Shown here piece by piece: positions 44,052 to 52,000 of a DNA stretch of 64,000 nt (within the stretch, counting starts at the first letter, position 1; each line of letters starts with the position of its first letter). This DNA comes from Candidatus Aminicenantes bacterium (GTDB taxonomy: Bacteria; Acidobacteriota; Aminicenantia; Aminicenantales; JAFGBC01): the NCBI GenBank assembly GCA_963702005.1, contig OY969696.1:1248001-1312000 (forward strand), written 5' to 3'. Position numbers and translations under genes: made by a program. The notes beneath the pieces are model-generated. The model was not told where the DNA came from, ran no database searches, and saw only the letters and a list, made by a program, of their open reading frames with translations.

Positions 44052-45157
44052 GGTTGAGACTCCTCTTTCTTTCGCGCGCCGACTTGGCGGGGGATAAGAC
44101 CCCGCCGAACGGCGAGTTCGGCGTTCAGGACCGAGGCCCCGGCCGCGCCGCGGACCGTGTTGTGGACCAACGCGAACAAATTTAAAAACCGGCCCGAGCG
44201 CCGGATGCGGCCGACGGTCACGGCCATGCCCCTGGCCCGTTCGGGCGAACCGGCCTCGACGTCGAGGGCGGGTTGGGGACGGTCCTCTTCGCGTCCGACG
44301 ATGACGGGCGCCTCGGGGGCGGTGGGAAGCCGGAGCCTCTGAGGGATGCCCCGAAACGAGGCGAGCGCCTCCCGGGCGTCTTCCGGATCGATCTCGCGAT
44401 CGAGCTCGAGCGCCAGGCTGAGGAGGTGCCCGTCTCGGATGGGGACGCGGGCGCAGCTCGCGTTGACCGCGAACGGCGCGGGTTCAACAGCGTTCCCGGC
44501 CAGGCGGCCTAAAATCTTTTTCGATTCCCGCGCCAGTTTCTCCTCTTCGTTTCCGATGTAGGGGACTACGTTGGCCGCGATGTCGAAGGCCGCCAGCCCC
44601 CGCCGGCCGGCGCCCGAGATGGCCTGGTAGCTCGTCGCGATGACGGTCTTGATCCCGAACGGCTCGAAGGGTTTGAGGGCCAGGACCAGGCCCGAGGTCG
44701 TGCAATTCGAGTTCGCTATGATGAATCCGCCGTGCCGCTCGATTTGGCCTCGGGCGAGCTCGATGTGATCCCCGTTGACCTCGGGAACGAGGATCGGGAC
44801 GTCCTCGTCCATCCGATGGGCGCTCGCGTTGGAGAAAACGGCCAGGCCGCCGTCGCGGAGCTTCGTTTCGACGCCGCGGGCGGTCGCGGCCGGGAGAGCG
44901 TCGAAGGCGATGGCAATTCCGGTTTCAATCAGACTCCGGGCCGAGCTGAGCAGGATTTCCATTCCGGCCGCCGCGCGGGGAACGTTCCCGCCCAAAGTCC
45001 AACTCACGGCGGCGCCGTATATTCGGCCCGCCGAGCGGGCCGAGGCGGTCAGAGCCCCGATCTCGAACCAGGGATGGTCCGCCAGAAGTCTTACGAACCG
45101 CTGGCCGACCAGCCCGGTCGCGCCCAGTACGGCTACCTTGATTTTCGAGCTATCCAT
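44048..45157 (-). CDS. asd: Aspartate-semialdehyde dehydrogenase (archaeal/fungal-type)
   Basis: VAVLGATGLVGQRF, SNASAHRM..DVP, NSNCTT, QAISGAG and HNTVRGAAG. Confidence 0.93.
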   Translation of the reverse strand: MDSSKIKVAVLGATGLVGQRFVRLLADHPWFEIGALTASARSAGRIYGAAVSWTLGGNVPRAAAGMEILLSSARSLIETGIAIAFDALPAATARGVETKLRDGGLAVFSNASAHRMDEDVPILVPEVNGDHIELARGQIERHGGFIIANSNCTTSGLVLALKPFEPFGIKTVIATSYQAISGAGRRGLAAFDIAANVVPYIGNEEEKLARESKKILGRLAGNAVEPAPFAVNASCARVPIRDGHLLSLALELDREIDPEDAREALASFRGIPQRLRLPTAPEAPVIVGREEDRPQPALDVEAGSPERARGMAVTVGRIRRSGRFLNLFALVHNTVRGAAGASVLNAELAVRRGLIPRQVGARKKEESQP

Positions 45158-45911
45158 GTCGATGTCCTTTCCCGCGGAGGGGATTCTCCCTTCCGCGGTC
45201 GACGGTGCTGATTCGGCCCGGATCGACCGGAACGCGGACGATCTCGGGAACGTCTCCGCAGACGGCCAGAGTGTCTTCGATGATGACGAGCAGGCCTTCG
45301 ATCCCTTCGACCAAGAGCTTGGCCATGGCCTCCTCGATCAGGGCGCGCTCGTTGGCCTTGATGGCGTTCCCGAGCGCCGTCGCGGCAGCGTCGGCCAGAC
45401 AGGGATCCGCCGAGATGACGGTCGCCGCGTCGGCCCGGCCGAAGCTCAGGGAATGGCCGACCGTCCCCGACGATGTGCAGACGCCGACGATGCCGGGGCG
45501 CGGCTCGAAGCGGAGGCCGATGTCCCGGATCGGAGACGGTCCGGCGAATATCCCGACCGTGACCGGACGGTCCGCGGCCATCGCGATATCGCCCCCGTTG
45601 TCGACGACGGCGTGCGTCGCGCCGGCCTCGATCATGGCCCGCAGCCCGAACTCGGCCACGGCCCCCGCCACCGCCGCCATCGGACCCACCCCCATCCGGC
45701 CGGCCGCCCCGGCCATGCGGCGGACGATTTCGGGAGCATCGGCCGGGACTTCGCAGGGCGCCAGCGATTCCCGGAATTCGGGATCCCTGCGGATATAGTC
45801 CTCAAGATATCTTCGCTGGCGGGCGATCTCCCGTTCGGCGGCAGGGATGAAAACCTCCTCCGCGATAACCGTGGCGATTGTTTCCCCGATATGGATCAGG
45901 CGTCTTTTCAT
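45150..45911 (-). CDS. UPF0280 (ApbE-like, COG2122) protein
   Basis: VGPMAAVAGA, VDNGGDI and CTSSGTVGHSLSFG.ADAATV. Confidence 0.9.
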   Translation of the reverse strand: MKRRLIHIGETIATVIAEEVFIPAAEREIARQRRYLEDYIRRDPEFRESLAPCEVPADAPEIVRRMAGAAGRMGVGPMAAVAGAVAEFGLRAMIEAGATHAVVDNGGDIAMAADRPVTVGIFAGPSPIRDIGLRFEPRPGIVGVCTSSGTVGHSLSFGRADAATVISADPCLADAAATALGNAIKANERALIEEAMAKLLVEGIEGLLVIIEDTLAVCGDVPEIVRVPVDPGRISTVDRGRENPLRGKGHRHG

Positions 45912-45919
45912 ATGGAGTC

Positions 45920-47348
45920 TCAGCTTTGCCGGAGCCTCTCGGCCCGGTCATCGACGATGTTTCGGACCGGGCCGAGAAAGCGCGTCGGCTTCTTAGAGTT
46001 GGGCGGCCGGATGGCGCCGACCGGGCAGGCATCGGCGCAGAGACGGCAGCCGGCGCATGCGGATGCGTCGGCCCTGATGGCCCAGGCCCGCGTCCTGCGG
46101 AAAACGCCCCGGGGACAGATGGAGAGACATTCTCCGCATTCGATGCAGGTCGCCGCGTCCCAGGCGACGCGCCCCTTCGAAGAAAACGCAGGCGACGGCG
46201 TTCGGCCCGGGCCGCCGGGCTGGGACGGCCGCCGTTCGAGAGGCTTGACCGCCGCCTGCGTAGGAAGGTTTTCGCTGGGCGCCGTCAGAAGAAACTCGCC
46301 TCGCTCGATCCACCTCTTGAGCGCTTCGGCGATGCGCCGGGCCGCGGCGAAGCTCGAGAGGGGAGAGGTCCGGACATCGCGGCCGGCGAGTTCGATCGCG
46401 CCGGACTTGAGCTCGGCGTAGCTGACCGTTCGCAGGGCGGGCCTCGTCCGGGACGGGACGCCGTAGTCGATGACGCTCGTGAAGATATCTCCGTCGCCGA
46501 CGCCGGCCGCCCGGGCGACCCCGGCGTCAAGGACGGGGATGGGGATCCCGACCCCGACATAGAGCGTCGAGCCGTAGCCGGGGAAGGTCGCGGCCCGGAC
46601 GAACTCGGGCGACATTCTCTTGAGATCGCCCTGAACCATGAGGGTCCCGAAGCCGCTCTGGGGGCTGTGTTGGGTGCCCGGGCCGGTTACGAACCCGGGG
46701 GCGCCGCCCAGGAAGATCCGCGTCCCGATCCCGATCGTCCGGTAGCCCGGGTCGTTCGAAAGCGGCGAGAGGGCGCCGGCCCCGGAGAAGGTCACGTTCC
46801 CGAAGCGGGGGAGGAGCTTCCCCATGTAGGTCCGCAGCGTCCGCGGCCCCGAGTTCGTGGCGGCGTTGTAGCGCTGATAGCCGTTGCGGGGGTTGCTCAT
46901 GATGGCCGAGTTCAGGTCGGCGAGCTTTAGCGTGGTCACGATTCTTTTGCGCGGGTAGCAGTCCGTCCCGTAGGCGACGGCCCGGAGGACGACCGGCTTG
47001 CCGCGGAGGAGGTCCTCGATGACGTGGGCTCCGCCGTAGGTGATCCCGCGCGAACGGGAGGGCTGGGTCGCCCCGATGTAGGCGTCCACGGCCGCAACCC
47101 CCGTGTAGGCCTCGACGTCGTTGAGCCAGAACGCGGCCCATCTTGATCGGGGGTTCGGAATGGCCGAAGTTGAGCCAAACGCCCGAGGAGCACATGGCGC
47201 CGAAGGTTCCGGTCGTGACGACGTCAACCTCTTGGGCGGCCCGCTCGGGGCCTTTGGCGCGGACGAGCGACGCCATTTCGTCGGCGCGGATGACGCGGAC
47301 GGTCCCGCGGCTGATCTTTTTATTGATATCGGATAGGGTCTTGGACAC
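45920..47348 (-). CDS. L-aspartate-semialdehyde sulfurtransferase (DUF39 homocysteine biosynthesis protein) fused to a 2x[4Fe-4S] ferredoxin; +1 frameshift near 47130
   Basis: GTG start with [25 protein letters not shown] is in one frame; [43 protein letters not shown] and [12 protein letters not shown] in another. Span is 1429 nt (3n+1). Confidence 0.85.
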
Positions 47349-47480
47349 AGGTTTCCTCCTTGTCTGTGAAGTTATTGAACGGGGACGGAAGCCTCAGCGC
47401 TTCCGGATCGGGGGTCCCGAATTTCGGCCCTCGGGCGAGAGCCGCCATTCGGGCTTCACATTATCATAAAGGAGGGAAAT
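47349..47480 (-). promoter_or_regulatory. Structured 5' leader with anti-SD (candidate translational attenuator)
   Basis: Minus-strand CCTCCTT (47475-47469) is complementary to SD AAGGAGG (47361-47355). Nested stems: TGTGAAG/CTTCACA, CCCGAAT/ATTCGGG, CGGCTCTC/GAGGGCCG and CGGAAGC/GCTTCCG. Confidence 0.55.
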
Positions 47481-47554
47481 ACAAAGCGGGACGGAGTCCG
47501 GGATTCCGGGTGGGCCTTGACGGCCGATGTTTGGATTCTGCTTATCGGACTCAT
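47456..47554 (-). CDS. Putative 32-aa leader peptide MSPISRIQTSAVKAHPESRTPSRFVFPSFMIM
   Basis: ORF starts 11 nt after a -10 element and ends ATG ATA ATG TGA, directly after the anti-SD codons CCC TCC TTT. Confidence 0.5.
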   Translation of the reverse strand: MSPISRIQTSAVKAHPESRTPSRFVFPSFMIM

Positions 47555-47565
47555 TTCGACTGCGG

Positions 47566-47594
47566 TTTTTAACACAGGACGGATCGTTTGTCAA
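47566..47594 (-). promoter_or_regulatory. sigma70-like promoter of the homocysteine operon
   Basis: TTGACA-17 nt-TAAAAA with TGn extension and an upstream A-tract. Confidence 0.6.
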
Positions 47595-47778
47595 TGTCTT
47601 TGTTTATTTTTTTGGCGACGGCGCCGACGGCCGCGAGAAGGGACGCCGCTTCGGGCCGGGGCGGGAGGGGAATCCGTCCTTCCCAGGCCTCGGCTTCGCG
47701 GAGAGCGGGGCCGAGCCGGGACAGTTCAGAGAACTCGACGAGCCCGGGAGTCCCATGAATTGCCGATGTGGGCGATCC

Positions 47779-48492
47779 TCATGAGCGCTCAAACCGGGAG
47801 GCGATGAAGTCGTAGAGCTCCATGTCCAGGCCGTTCATGTCCTCGATGAGCTTGCGGGTCGCCGGATTCGGGGTGTCCTCGCCGGCCGGCTCGGGCGCCG
47901 TGTTCCGGCGGTTGCAGGCCGGGACCTCCCATCCCCATTTGCGGCGGAGCCGTTCCAGGAAAACCTCGAACCTCTCCGTCGTCCCCGCTTCGAAAAAGTA
48001 CTCGGCCAGATTCGTGCGGGCCTGGTCGAGCATGGAGCGGGGGCAGTGTCCCAACGGAGCTCCCCAGCCAAGGCCGGCCAGGAGGCGCGTCTGGCCGTTA
48101 TCGAGCTCCGGGCTCAACCCGCTCAGCAGGTAGTCTTTGAGGCTCATGTCGCCGTCGATGACGGACCGATGGAGATAGTGGTCCGGCCGCCGCAGGACGA
48201 AGCGATAATGACTGACGATCCGTTCGACGGGGTTCCGAACCACGGTCAAGTAGGCCGGGGGGGGCGCTTCCTGCCAGCGGTGAACCCCGAAGGCGAAATG
48301 GCCTGCGACGCAGCGGAGCTCCCGCTTCGCCTCGGGCGACATCGTCTTCAACCGGTCGATGAGCTCCCGCGTGCTGCGGCCGTAAAAAACGAGAATCGCT
48401 TCGGGCGCGTAGCGGTTCTTGAGGACCTCCTCGACGAAGGTCGTCCCGGCGCATCTGGGGATGTGGAGAAAGAAAACCGTCTTGTCGACCAT
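47779..48492 (-). CDS. Sulfotransferase family 2 protein
   Basis: 5'-PSB FFLHIPRCAGTT, GHFAFG, 3'-PB VRNPVERIVSHY and N..DMELY; alternative start 48525. Confidence 0.85.
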   Translation of the reverse strand: MVDKTVFFLHIPRCAGTTFVEEVLKNRYAPEAILVFYGRSTRELIDRLKTMSPEAKRELRCVAGHFAFGVHRWQEAPPPAYLTVVRNPVERIVSHYRFVLRRPDHYLHRSVIDGDMSLKDYLLSGLSPELDNGQTRLLAGLGWGAPLGHCPRSMLDQARTNLAEYFFEAGTTERFEVFLERLRRKWGWEVPACNRRNTAPEPAGEDTPNPATRKLIEDMNGLDMELYDFIASRFERS

Positions 48493-48888
48493 GGCTTCTT
48501 CAAAGGCTCCGGTAAAGCCTTTCATCCTCTCTAACGATGGTCTTCCAGGATAGCTCGAACGCCCGCGTCCTGTTGCGGACATGGATATAGAGGCCGGTGC
48601 AGAGCGGTCTGATCCGCTCATCGGCCGTCGCTGCCGCGGTCGAGAGGCCAGGGATAAACGGGAGAGATCATAAGGATCTTCATCGTGCGATCCGGGATGG
48701 AAGCTATTGTAAATAAAAGCGCCGCCGGATTCAAACGGGCTCGCAGAAACCTTCTTTGAAGGCCGGGTTGATGCTTCCGGCGTTCATTTTTTTGGAATAA
48801 TTCAATTCATTGGATTAATAAATTTGGATATTTAGAAGTCGCAGGAGATAACTTATTGATAAAAAATAGATTAGCGAATATAAAATAC

Positions 48889-48904
48889 TGGCATAATTCT
48901 TGCT
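48889..48904 (+). promoter_or_regulatory. sigma54 promoter
   Basis: TGGCATAATTCTTGCT (GG-N10-GC) within an AT-rich intergenic region. Confidence 0.72.
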
Positions 48905-49043
48905 AAAAAATATATCATATGAGATATTTTACATTTCAGAGTGGAGGTGAGACTAAGGAGAGAGGCATGAATTTATGGGGATTTAGGCGGAGTCCCCTAA
49001 GGGGATTCCAGAGGAAGAGTCAATATGGAAAAAGGAGAGATCA

Positions 49044-52000
49044 TTGCGTAAGCTCATCATTTTCCTGTGCGTGCTTGCGTTAACGATCCCTGTCCTGGCC
49101 CAGCAGAGAGCCGGCAACATCTACGGCAAGGTTCTGGACCAGGAAGGGAACCCGCTCCCCGGCGCGACCGTGACCCTGACCGGCAGCCTGACGGCGCCGG
49201 TGACGGTGGTCACCTCGGCCGAGGGCAATTTCCGCTTTCTATCTCTGCCTCCGAGCGCGAATTACGCCATCAAGGTCGAGCTCCAGGGATTCAAGGCGCT
49301 GACCCGGCCCGACATCATCGTCAGTATCGGCAAGAACACCGAGATCGGCCTGACCATGGAAGTCGGCGCCCTGGAGGAAGAGATCACCGTCACGGCCACA
49401 TCCCCGGTCGTTGAAACCAAGAAAACGACCATCACTCAGACCGTGACCAGAGAAGTTCTCCAGTCCCTGCCGACGGCCCGCGACCCCTGGGTTATCCTCC
49501 AGCAGGCGGCCGGCGTCCAGGTTGACCGTGAGAACGTCGGCGGCAGCGAGTCCGGCCAGATGTCGGGCTTCATCGCCAAGGGCGGCGGAACGGAGATCTG
49601 GAGCGTCGACGGCGTCAACACCGAAGACCCGTCCTCCATTTCCTCGATCACCTACTACGACTTCGACACCTTCGAGGAGATGAACATTACCCAGGGCGGC
49701 GGCGACGTCACGGTCGCCACGGGCGGCATCCAGGTCAACCTGGTCACCCGCCGCGGCGGCAACAAGCTCAACATCGGCGGCCGCTTCTACCGCACGGACA
49801 AGAAGTTCCAGGCCGACAACCTGACCGACGCCCTCAAGAAGGAAGGCGTCGTCGGCACGAACGTCATCCGGGCCATCAAGGACTACGGCTTCAACATGGG
49901 CGGCCCGCTGATCAAGGACAAAGTCTGGTGGTGGGCGTCCTACGGCGTCCAGGATATCTGGACGAACAACATCTACGGCAACAAGGACGACACCCTTCTC
50001 CAAAACTACGCCGCCAAGGTCAACATCCAGATCCTGCCCCAGAACCGCTTCGAGGCCTTCCTCCAAGTCGGCGGCAAGGAGAAGTTTGGCCGCTCCTCGG
50101 GCTACAACTTCCCCCTCGGCTACCACCAGCAGAGCAAGTATTATTTCGGCACCCCCATCCTCAAGCTGGAGGACGAGCATATGTTCGGGGACAACTTCCT
50201 ACTGTCCGCCAAATACGCGTTCAGCGGCGGCGGCTTCATGTTCCTGCCCATGGCCGACGAGTCCTTCACCCATTGGCTCCAGCACAATGTGACGACCGAT
50301 ATCTTCGAGAACTCCTACTGGAACTACGGCGCTTCCCGCCCGACCCACTCGGCTCGGCTCTTGGGCAACTACTTCAACGACAACCTGTTCGGCCTCAGCC
50401 ATGAGCTCAAGTTCGGCGCCGAGTACCGGAGCAGCACGGGCGCTCACTACAGCACGACCCCCGGCAACACCTACCGGGACATCAACATCAATTACACCAC
50501 GCTCGACATCAACGGCGACGGCGAGCCGGACATGGTGCCCGGCATCAATACCCTCTATGTCTTCCGGGGCTGGCAGGACAACAACCACGTCACCGAGTAC
50601 ACGGGCTACCTCAGCGACACGATCACCAAAGGCCGCTTCAACCTGATCCTCGGCCTCCGCTACAGCTACATGAAGCCCGAGATCATGGCCTTCACGATGA
50701 ACGCGGTCGAAAAGAACAGCCCCGTCTGGCAGAACAACTTCAGCGCGACGGCGGCCGACGCCATCGCTCGGGTCCTCCCTGGGCTTGATGTCCCGGCCCA
50801 GACCGGCAGCTACAAGTGGTCCTTCCTCTCGCCCCGGATCGGCATGACCTACGACTTGTCCGGCGACGGGAAGACCATCGCCAAGTTGTCGGCGGCCCAG
50901 TACGGCGACTGGATGGGCACGGGCGAGGGCAGCTACTACGAGCCCCTCGGACTGGGCGGCTGGATGAACTTCTACTGGATGGACAACAACACGAACGGGA
51001 TCGTCGACGCGACCGAGCTCTACTGGTACACCGCGTCGAGCTACGCCCCCAACCAGGTCTTCAACGACGCCGGGGCCCTCATCGGCGACGTCAGCGGCGC
51101 CAAGGGCCTCATGTGGGGCGACTACGACATCAACAACCCGCAGAGCTTCAGCTCCCCCCGCTACACGATCGACAAGAGCGTCAACTCCCCGCGGGTCCAG
51201 GAAATCCTGTTCTCTCTCGAACGGGAAGTCCTGCCCGACCTGGGTGTCGCCATCGACCTCAGCTACCGCAAGTTCGATCACTTCAACTGGTACGTGGCCT
51301 ACGATCCCGCCACCGGCGACAAGGCCGACAAGGGCGAGTACGTCCAGGTCGGCACGATCCCCAACCAGGTCGGCCCCTATTCCACGGGCGACGCGGCCGG
51401 CAAGCCCTACTACATGCTCAAGGCCGGCGTTGCCTCCAGATTCTACCGGCTATACGAGCGGCAACCCGACTACTACCGCGACTTCCTGGGCGCCGAACTC
51501 CGGGTGACCAAGCGCCTCTCCAACAAGTGGATGCTCGATGCTTCGTTCACCTACCAGGATCAGAAGCAGCACTTCGGCAGCAACGGGTATGCCGACGGCG
51601 CAACCATGACGAACCTCTGGGCCCTCGACGGTCAGGTTTGGGGGCCTAACCTCGGCGCGGCCAGCGGAAAGATCGGCAGCAACGTCTACTCCAAGTGGCT
51701 ATTCAAGGCCTCCGGCCTGTATCAGCTCCCGCTCGACTTCAACATCTCCTTCTCCTTCAATGCCCGCCAAGGACACTTCCTCCTCGAGCAGGCCACCATC
51801 ACCGACTATAGCGCTCCCAACGCCCTGAACCGCAGCGTCCGGGTCTACCTGAGTCCCAACGGCTCCGACCGCCTCCCCACCTTCTACAACCTGAACATGC
51901 GGCTCGAGAAGGTCCTCAAGGCCGGCGACTACGGGAAGATCTACATCATGGCCGACGTCTTCAACGCCCTGAACTCTTCCATCCTGAACAGACGCTACGA

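Follow-up and report, generated by a model that had tools for sequence, protein, structure and literature searches.

A candidate methionine-sensing leader peptide ahead of a DUF39 homocysteine operon in Aminicenantes-type bacteria

In the genome of a Candidatus Aminicenantes bacterium (assembly GCA_963702005.1), a stretch of 64,000 nucleotides of contig OY969696.1 (positions 1,248,001 to 1,312,000, hereafter the window) carries on its minus strand a leader region preceding a gene of the HcyBio/DUF39 family. This leader contains a short upstream open reading frame (uORF) ending in the codons ATG ATA ATG (Met-Ile-Met), which is followed by a hairpin, H1, and further on by the Shine-Dalgarno (SD) sequence and GTG start codon of the DUF39 gene (Table 1). 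The DUF39 gene and the genes downstream, encoding a PRK04334-type protein, an archaeal-type Asd and an aspartate kinase, form a set which fits homocysteine synthesis from aspartate semialdehyde, a route known from methanogens. The PRK04334-type gene (45150-45911), for which no Pfam match was found, presumably corresponds to UPF0280/COG2122, a family which in methanogens is connected with the sulfide-dependent synthesis of homocysteine. An earlier note on this DNA had proposed a methionine-sensing attenuator made of a promoter, the uORF, an anti-SD, a UGUGAAG/CUUCACA helix, the SD and the GTG start, and all of these features were recovered at the same minus-strand places. Based on the comparison of leaders described below, the uORF-hairpin element is taken to define a methionine regulon in Aminicenantes-type bacteria.

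Table 1. Coordinates, within the window, of the leader elements and of the genes behind them.
Feature	Coordinates	Strand	Basis
Candidate promoter: -35 TTGACA, 17-nt spacer, TGn, -10 TAAAAA	-35 47594-47589; TGn 47574-47572; -10 47571-47566	minus	sequence and relatives
Leader-peptide uORF, 32 codons and TGA (stop 47458-47456)	47456..47554	minus	translation MSPISRIQTSAVKAHPESRTPSRFVFPSFMIM, then stop
Genus-specific helix within the uORF, GAGUCCG (47552-47546) with CGGACUC (47500-47494)	47494..47552	minus	centroid structure
Candidate anti-SD CCCTCCTT, inside the uORF, 1 nt ahead of the first Met codon	47469..47476	minus	fold
Putative regulatory codons ATG ATA ATG (Met-Ile-Met)	47459..47467	minus	70-leader comparison
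UGUGAAG, overlapping the last Met codon and, past it, the TGA stop and 5-nt spacer	47454..47460	minus	predicted pairing with CUUCACA 47371-47365
Hairpin H1, CCCGAAU..CGGCUCUC-GCCC-GAGGGCCG..AUUCGGG, 5 nt past the last Met codon	47416..47453	minus	covariation
Post-hairpin A and C-tract ACCCCC, conserved flank	47410..47415	minus	leader listing
Second, variable hairpin CGGAAGC-GCUGAG-GCUUCCG	47386..47405	minus	fold
CUUCACA (47371-47365), SD AAGGAGG (47361-47355) and GTG start (47348-47346) of the DUF39 gene	47346..47371	minus	sequence, fold
Putatively regulated gene, HcyBio/DUF39 (PF01837) fused to 2x4Fe-4S ferredoxin	45920..47348	minus	Pfam
PRK04334-type protein	45911-45150	minus	NCBIfam NF003324 ('hypothetical protein'), above cut-off
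asd, archaeal-type	45157-44048	minus	profile searches
Aspartate kinase with ACT domains	44051-42672	minus	profile searches

The distribution of the element has been traced from the DUF39 genes outwards. Eight of 41 related genomes possess a DUF39 gene, and in all eight the upstream region carries ATGAT(A/C)ATG together with the hairpin. Among the best 80 DUF39 loci of the species collection, the motif is present 100-170 nt upstream in seven Aminicenantes/Acidobacteriota-type bacterial loci (two of them labelled as Clostridia metagenome-assembled genomes) and one further locus has the ATGATGATG variant; at this distance, the motif was not found in the archaeal loci of the same set. A uORF with terminal Met codons, which the earlier note expected to be shared if its proposal held, was found in the DUF39 leaders of relatives throughout: in 8/8, in seven more plus one MMM variant, and in 11/11 from other orders or classes. 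A covariance model of the motif and hairpin retrieved the element from 52 of the 151 genomes searched within this order (40 of the 105 good-quality ones), and a broader model from 8 of 11 genomes sampled in the class's other orders and from 2 of about 139 belonging to other classes of the phylum. Some genomes of the order have two or three copies. This genome has one, and ATGATAATG, its form of the motif, occurs a single time in the 64 kb window when both strands are counted.

The genes located behind the leader are not restricted to DUF39. Profile searches identified, in addition to HcyBio, asd (10 tested), O-acetylhomoserine sulfhydrylase (metY)/CGS-type or other Cys_Met_Meta_PP enzymes (11), methylenetetrahydrofolate reductase (MTHFR, metF; 2), homocysteine S-methyltransferase (1) and a MetX-like alpha/beta hydrolase (1). 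A motif-based tally of 70 unique leaders, the set to which all counts out of 70 refer, gave 33 DUF39, 15 Cys_Met_Meta_PP, 12 asd, 4 MTHFR and 1 S-methyl_trans, with one leader cut and four others, namely two MetX-like genes, one truncated DUF39 remnant and one mis-picked ORF ahead of metY. The same putative sensor thus stands at several operons of the methionine pathway and, within a genome, at different Met genes (up to 2-3 copies). As the leader also precedes methionine genes other than DUF39, methionine sensing becomes much likelier than the earlier note could know, and the occurrence of the same leader before these genes in relatives points to a ribosome-directed methionine regulon. At one locus (L148; G138:C19, around 530-700 of the locus), an intact leader is followed by a DUF39 N-terminal remnant of about 55 codons and then by an unrelated secreted-looking protein; the regulated gene seems truncated.

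The reading frame itself is conserved. In 67 of the 70 leaders, the motif is reached in frame by an ATG-started ORF with a minimum of 5 codons, compared with 7/70 and 4/70 for the other two frames, and the remaining three leaders have GTG-started uORFs; this frame specificity strengthens the uORF proposed in the earlier note. The encoded peptides range from 11 to 48 residues and, across lineages, are unrelated apart from Met-Ile-Met. Within the genus, the uORFs have 32-33 codons and all end in PSFMIM followed by the stop, the frame being held through an inserted codon despite divergence. Similarly, one subgroup retains ..K[IV][VIN]EI..MIM via third-position changes (GTC/GTT/GTA, GAG/GAA, ATT/ATC/ATA). 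Collectively, these patterns suggest that the uORF has been selected as an ORF and is presumably translated.

Within the motif, the constraint falls on the Met codons. The 70 leaders comprise 58 with ATGATAATG, 9 with ATGATCATG, 2 with TTGATAATG and 1 with ATGATGATG, and 10 of the 12 departures concern the third base of the Ile codon, the sole synonymous site of Met-Ile-Met. The last Met codon is never lost; two Met codons are present in 68/70 leaders and at least one in 70/70. ATA accounts for 8.8% of the Ile codons in the long ORFs of the window, yet it is strongly preferred in the motif. In 29 leaders the motif is immediately followed by a stop, in every case UGA, and in the other 41 the ORF continues past Met-Ile-Met with differing residues. 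A degenerate leader, L144 (G020:C107, around 410-480 of the locus), has also been encountered, in which CTGATAATA replaces the motif while H1 is intact; the promoter and the start and frame of the uORF are lost, and a 15-codon ORF with a strong SD comes next. This element looks like one that is decaying or has been re-purposed.

The position of the promoter relative to the uORF is also shared. The leader promoter is unlisted in a strict-consensus promoter scan of the window, which demands T at position 6 of the -10 hexamer, where A is present here, and the promoter call therefore rests on relatives, in which TTGACA-16/17-TAnAAT is found at the same place, mostly 7-13 nt upstream of the uORF ATG in the 70 leaders. 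In the window, the ATG at 47554 is 11 nt past the end of the -10 box. With such a gap, the uORF would be leaderless or nearly so. The earlier note had conceded that an internal -10 box, TATGATAAT, would leave the uORF outside the transcript if it were the real one. Comparative support for this alternative is nil: no conserved -35 box is present upstream of the internal GATAAT, the best match reaching at most 3/6 in 67/70 leaders, and this candidate was rejected.

The hairpin provides a second layer of conservation at the RNA level. In a raw MAFFT alignment of 16 leaders, RNAalifold returned no structure, the arms being misaligned; nine well-aligned leaders and then a covariance-model alignment were used instead. 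On 55 model-aligned leaders, 91.4% of the cells of H1 are paired and compensatory changes occur at 13 of 15 pairs, values matched by 0/500 shuffles, and controls slid along the alignment gave 30-56%. CCCG:CGGG, the four pairs with which H1 begins, do not vary in 54-55 of the 55 leaders and start 5 nt past the motif (+14). Given the established dimensions of the ribosome footprint, the base of H1 would lie at the mRNA entry site when AUA occupies the P site and the second AUG the A site. Conservation extends to the flanks: the sequence around the motif is pyrimidine-rich and G-poor across the 70 leaders, C is present at two third-codon positions, -4 (54/70) and -7 (48/70), and G or C is preferred at the second base after the motif, leaders with a sense codon at this position included. 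This last preference accounts for all 29 immediate stops being TGA. After H1, most leaders have A or G, 0-3 nt and then CCC(C).

Two further features of H1 have been observed in subsets of leaders. In those reading past Met-Ile-Met (e.g., L008, L039 and L145), each arm of H1 is self-complementary (GCCCG-GAUA-CGGGC and CCCG-UAUU-CGGG), and the long hairpin could refold into two small ones; translation of the H1 arm in leaders of this type results in a pseudo-conserved peptide, MIM-x-x-P-D-T-G. In the KI[VI]EI..MIM subgroup (L004-L006, L034, L042, L047 and L174), a second copy of the H1 3'-arm follows 20-30 nt further downstream; it often complements the 5'-arm better, which suggests alternative 1:2 versus 1:3 pairing.

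At the locus itself, folding of 47560-47337 as RNA gave a minimum free energy (MFE) of -76.5 kcal/mol (z = -2.91), with 0/200 shuffles equally stable. In the MFE and centroid structures alike, the anti-SD:SD and UGUGAAG:CUUCACA pairings close around a long hairpin. The anti-SD/SD helix put forward in the earlier note is predicted in three genomes of the genus, the SD pairing with the region around the Met codons with a probability of 0.87 in the window and of 0.81 and 0.89 in the other two (duplex z-scores of -2.2, -4.6 and -3.5 for the three genomes), and it includes one compensatory pair, the outer position being U:A in L002 and C:G in L003. Both arms of the genus-specific GAGUCCG:CGGACUC helix are likewise kept in L002 and L003. 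The UGUGAAG/CUUCACA helix of the earlier note has a narrower range; it is found in the window, L002 and L128 and is missing from most other leaders, so that it is not a general feature. In other lineages, the element opposing the ribosome-binding site (RBS) differs and occupies the same footprint position: in L148 and L149 the RBS GGCAUUAUCAUG is exactly complementary to CAUGAUAAUGCC, and in L007, L115 and L116 the start codon and the second codon pair with CGG(C/U)AUGAU. At the place of the second hairpin, relatives carry longer hairpins of other sequence. The post-hairpin C-tract was considered as a general anti-SD and rejected, its pairing with the SD being predicted in only 5 of 58 leaders.

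Known regulatory RNAs do not account for the leader. Searching Rfam with cmscan over 46800-48200 at E-values up to 10 returned nothing relevant, only two chance matches outside the leader, and Rfam 15 at gathering score over the whole window gave no relevant match, including for SAM-I to SAM-VI (S-adenosylmethionine, SAM), SAH (S-adenosylhomocysteine), T-box and the Thr, Trp, His and Leu leaders. A known riboswitch at this site, a possibility raised in the earlier note, was not found. SAM-I is the usual control of bacterial DUF39/COG1900 genes. No SAM-I or T-box was found in this genome, and SAM-I is present in 7 of 31 relatives, where the four instances inspected all precede metK (two confirmed by Pfam). 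Since SAM-I is located on metK and the leader on the synthesis genes, SAM appears to control SAM synthetase and the Met-Ile-Met leader methionine synthesis. The inspected SAM-I loci (L180-L183, from G023, G010, G029 and G014) have a bacterial-type metK in genus g9 and an archaeal-type AdoMet synthase (PF01941) in genus g5.

A mechanism can be proposed on the basis of these data. The mRNA would begin a few bases ahead of the short leader ORF, which would be translated up to two Met codons split by one Ile codon near or at its end, with a stable hairpin exactly 5 nt further on. When Met-tRNA(Met) is scarce, the ribosome would halt at the Met-Ile-Met codons and its footprint would hide the pyrimidine-rich anti-SD CCCUCCUU and UGUGAAG, the partners of the SD and of CUUCACA in the free RNA. 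The SD would be exposed because the footprint covers both of these partners, allowing translation of the DUF39 / PRK04334-type / asd / aspartate kinase homocysteine operon. When methionine is plentiful, the ribosome would instead terminate at UGA and depart, and the closing helix would re-form. Stalling, its polarity with respect to methionine supply and an output by unmasking of the SD are our inferences. Such a ribosome-mediated methionine sensor, in which starvation stalling in the leader peptide unmasks the RBS, is to us the probable explanation of this locus, held with moderate confidence. The sensor role appears well supported across the family by the conservation of frame, motif and gene context, and SD unmasking is probably the output in the genus of the window.

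In the window, the simulated footprint of a stalled ribosome agrees with this explanation, although the effect is limited, RBS accessibility rising from 0.33 to no more than 0.49, with control masks at 0.39 and 0.33. Several observations weigh against it. In the simulation over 58 leaders, accessibility rose from 0.343 to 0.387, the controls giving 0.357 and 0.376 (effects of 0.044 versus 0.014 and 0.032; p = 0.14). Pairing between the uORF and the RBS reached at least 0.4 in 36/58 leaders, compared with about 31 expected from dinucleotide shuffles; the paired Wilcoxon test against shuffles gave p = 0.0045 on sequences which are non-independent. Cognate duplexes average -12.3 kcal/mol and non-cognate ones -11.2, only 1.1 kcal/mol apart, with a family mean duplex z of -0.87 versus +0.05 for a control window. 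The predicted partner of the SD in 13/58 leaders is a local element that lies downstream of the hairpin. A raw scan of RBS duplexes against sliding windows was uninformative, the best partner being scattered and often falling in the hairpin arms. As a family-wide output, SD unmasking thus has modest support from these models and is not significant by masking. The sensor itself would comprise only two codons, which are non-adjacent. AUA persists in GC-rich genomes too, in which no Ile codon is rarer, all stops directly after the motif are UGA and third-codon C is kept at -4 and -7, which together indicate RNA-level constraints beyond simple tRNA sensing. Finally, the uORF lacks an SD of its own and its ATG comes about 11 nt past the -10 box, so that efficient initiation has to be assumed, and methionine limitation would also affect the charging of initiator tRNA.

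Some of these constraints would be expected if the ribosome responded to a ligand rather than to missing Met-tRNA. According to this alternative, the nascent C-terminal Met-Ile-Met, the hairpin at fixed distance and the UGA or next codons stall the ribosome upon binding of methionine, SAM or homocysteine, the stalled ribosome then setting the downstream fold with a polarity that could be opposite to that of starvation stalling. The near-invariance of Met-Ile-Met, where a variable run of Met codons might have served, the UGA in 29/29 immediate stops, the invariant CCCG:CGGG base at +14, which would place it at the mRNA entry, and the weak family-wide result of the starvation output test are all in line with it. 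Known arrest peptides, however, usually require tunnel contacts, and no peptide conservation exists here upstream of Met-Ile-Met, the preceding residue varying (C, R, S, F, G, L, H and others); LIM and MMM variants occur, the ORF runs on with differing residues in 41/70 leaders, and the UGA bias is equally accounted for by the G/C preference which leaders with sense codons share. We consider ligand-dependent arrest unlikely. That Met-Ile-Met, CCCG:CGGG at the mRNA entry and the UGA or G/C context constitute an arrest module reading methionine or SAM directly in the ribosome is, if anything, slightly less likely still; such a module, if real, would be a bacterial counterpart of the SAM-dependent arrest of plant CGS1 and not a mere wait for Met-tRNA. 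The nucleotide conservation beyond codons (C at -4 and -7, the second post-motif base, the H1 base and the C-tract) might also reflect an RNA-level switch, in which an aptamer or protein-binding site for SAM, methionine or a regulator is built from AUGAUAAUG, the hairpin and the C-tract and the uORF is auxiliary, for instance in keeping the RNA open. The choice of AUA over AUC in GC-rich genomes and the several leaders whose RBS spacer is exactly complementary to the motif, such as L148 and L149, agree with this possibility. An untranslated aptamer would not be expected to show a frame-specific ORF or a near-constant gap of 7-13 nt between the -10 box and the ATG; the leader has a single hairpin with no conserved internal loop or multi-helix junction and no Rfam family match even at the lenient E-value, and the SAM riboswitches of these genomes are on metK and not on the leader-fronted genes. 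This switch is judged improbable, a little more so than arrest by a ligand.

The remaining alternatives concern the output and the element as a whole. In many members at least, the same Met-codon sensor could act on transcription, with termination inside the leader being either intrinsic or Rho-dependent. A lenient terminator-like hairpin with a U-run was indeed found between H1 and the gene in 19/58 leaders (e.g., L136), the tracts following the hairpin are C-rich and G-poor, that is rut-like, and SD unmasking is not significant family-wide. Most of the 19 sites, however, are weak or overlap H1, no U-run follows the second hairpin of the window, the terminator scan lists no terminator-like site on its leader strand and the anti-SD/SD pairing predicted at this locus is strong; no consistent leader terminator was found, and a transcriptional output has about the same low probability as the RNA-level switch. 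Chance, by which both the ORF and the complementarity would be fortuitous in a GC-rich leader and would regulate nothing, might be invoked from the dinucleotide-shuffled uORF parts, which pair with the RBS nearly as often as the real ones, and from the promoter failing the strict scan. It is effectively refuted by the presence of motif and hairpin in about a third of the genomes of the order, always before methionine-pathway genes, by the reading-frame test and by the covariation of H1.

Concerning the regulated gene, the DUF39 ORF reads as frameshifted in this assembly at 47131/47130. Positions 2-57 of the HcyBio profile match in the frame of 47348 and positions 49-349 in the +1 frame; the window reads GTTC TGG, and GTC TGG would restore the frame. 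The frames are split only in G000, seven relatives having the gene intact in one frame, and contigs of related strains (runs X1, X3 and X4) have one base fewer at 47130. The frameshift is either an assembly indel in the TT/AA pair or a strain-specific pseudogene. Upstream of the leader, 55 bases at 47661-47717 are missing from contigs of runs X1 and X2, an indel between related strains that falls within the 3' portion of the region of the upstream sulfotransferase-like gene. An AT-rich island (48700-49000, GC content 0.31-0.43 versus 0.63 for the window) is flanked by this sulfotransferase-like gene (48621-47779, minus strand) and by a 1025-aa ORF starting near 49044, the N-terminus of which is signal-peptide-like.

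Leader-peptide attenuation is textbook knowledge for Trp, His, Thr, Leu, Phe and Ile/Val, Cys being a recent addition, while the known bacterial controls of methionine are SAM/SAH riboswitches, T-boxes and protein regulators. Like the trpL, hisL, thrL, leuL and pheL attenuators, the element described here has a leader ORF whose regulatory codons are close to its end and lies ahead of an amino-acid biosynthetic operon, and in trpL two regulatory codons are enough. Unlike these classical leaders, which are covered by Rfam (RF00513, RF00514, RF00506, etc.), it matches no Rfam leader, has no terminator in the window and places its regulatory codons before the first hairpin arm. With SAM-I (S-box, RF00162), it shares a cis-acting position on sulfur and methionine genes; it differs in that neither the window nor the genome has a match and that the SAM-I of relatives (7/31) precede metK. 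A short conserved motif at the presumed stall site is reminiscent of arrest peptides such as TnaC, which arrests with tryptophan, and plant CGS1, whose MTO1 region responds to SAM and controls the committing step of methionine synthesis. The conserved upstream tunnel residues of TnaC, SecM and ErmCL are, in contrast, lacking, only Met-Ile-Met being kept.

The closest parallel is provided by the mycobacterial polycysteine attenuators, leaderless short ORFs forming a 'Cys ribulon', for which a stalled ribosome is proposed to block an RBS-hiding duplex (Canestrari et al., 10.1101/834739). Both systems have a short ORF at the 5' end (here a presumed position) with codons for the pathway's end product, and both place one device on several operons of one pathway, a ribosome-directed regulon. 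The element presented here differs from what that text describes in using Met instead of Cys and a near-invariant Met-Ile-Met instead of a run of consecutive codons, in its covarying hairpin with invariant bases at a fixed 5 nt and in its phylum, Acidobacteriota (Aminicenantes-type); its leaderless start would follow from the 7-13 nt that separate the -10 box from the ATG, and it is known from sequence alone. In ermC and cat, as summarized in the same text, a ribosome stalled in the leader ORF by an antibiotic and the nascent peptide remodels an SD-hiding pairing (10.1101/834739). Freeing of a downstream SD by a stall in a leader ORF would be common to both, the cause here being presumably a lack of Met-tRNA. 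As far as their accessible text extends, a comparative-genomics survey of uORFs describes a Cys-codon uORF and does not contain the word 'methionine' (PMC8632094), and in a genome-wide survey of attenuators, methionine comes up solely in connection with SAM riboswitches and a T-box (PMC2965389). The literature search returned no Met-codon leader peptide and no report of a riboswitch, uORF or leader in Aminicenantes, subscription journals being largely uncovered and absence thus unproven. The element is most likely a variant of leader-peptide attenuation for which we found no earlier description for methionine.

Sensing methionine through translation is conceptually awkward, as initiation itself requires Met-tRNA, and a widespread natural solution to this problem would be of interest for translation control. 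With its exact Met-Ile-Met, the rare codon AUA and a hairpin held at a distance of 5 nt, the element would offer a compact system in which to ask how few codons, and what mRNA context, make the ribosome a sensitive detector of an amino acid. It may also be used to annotate methionine genes in a large uncultured class, including those of the archaeal-type DUF39 route from aspartate semialdehyde.

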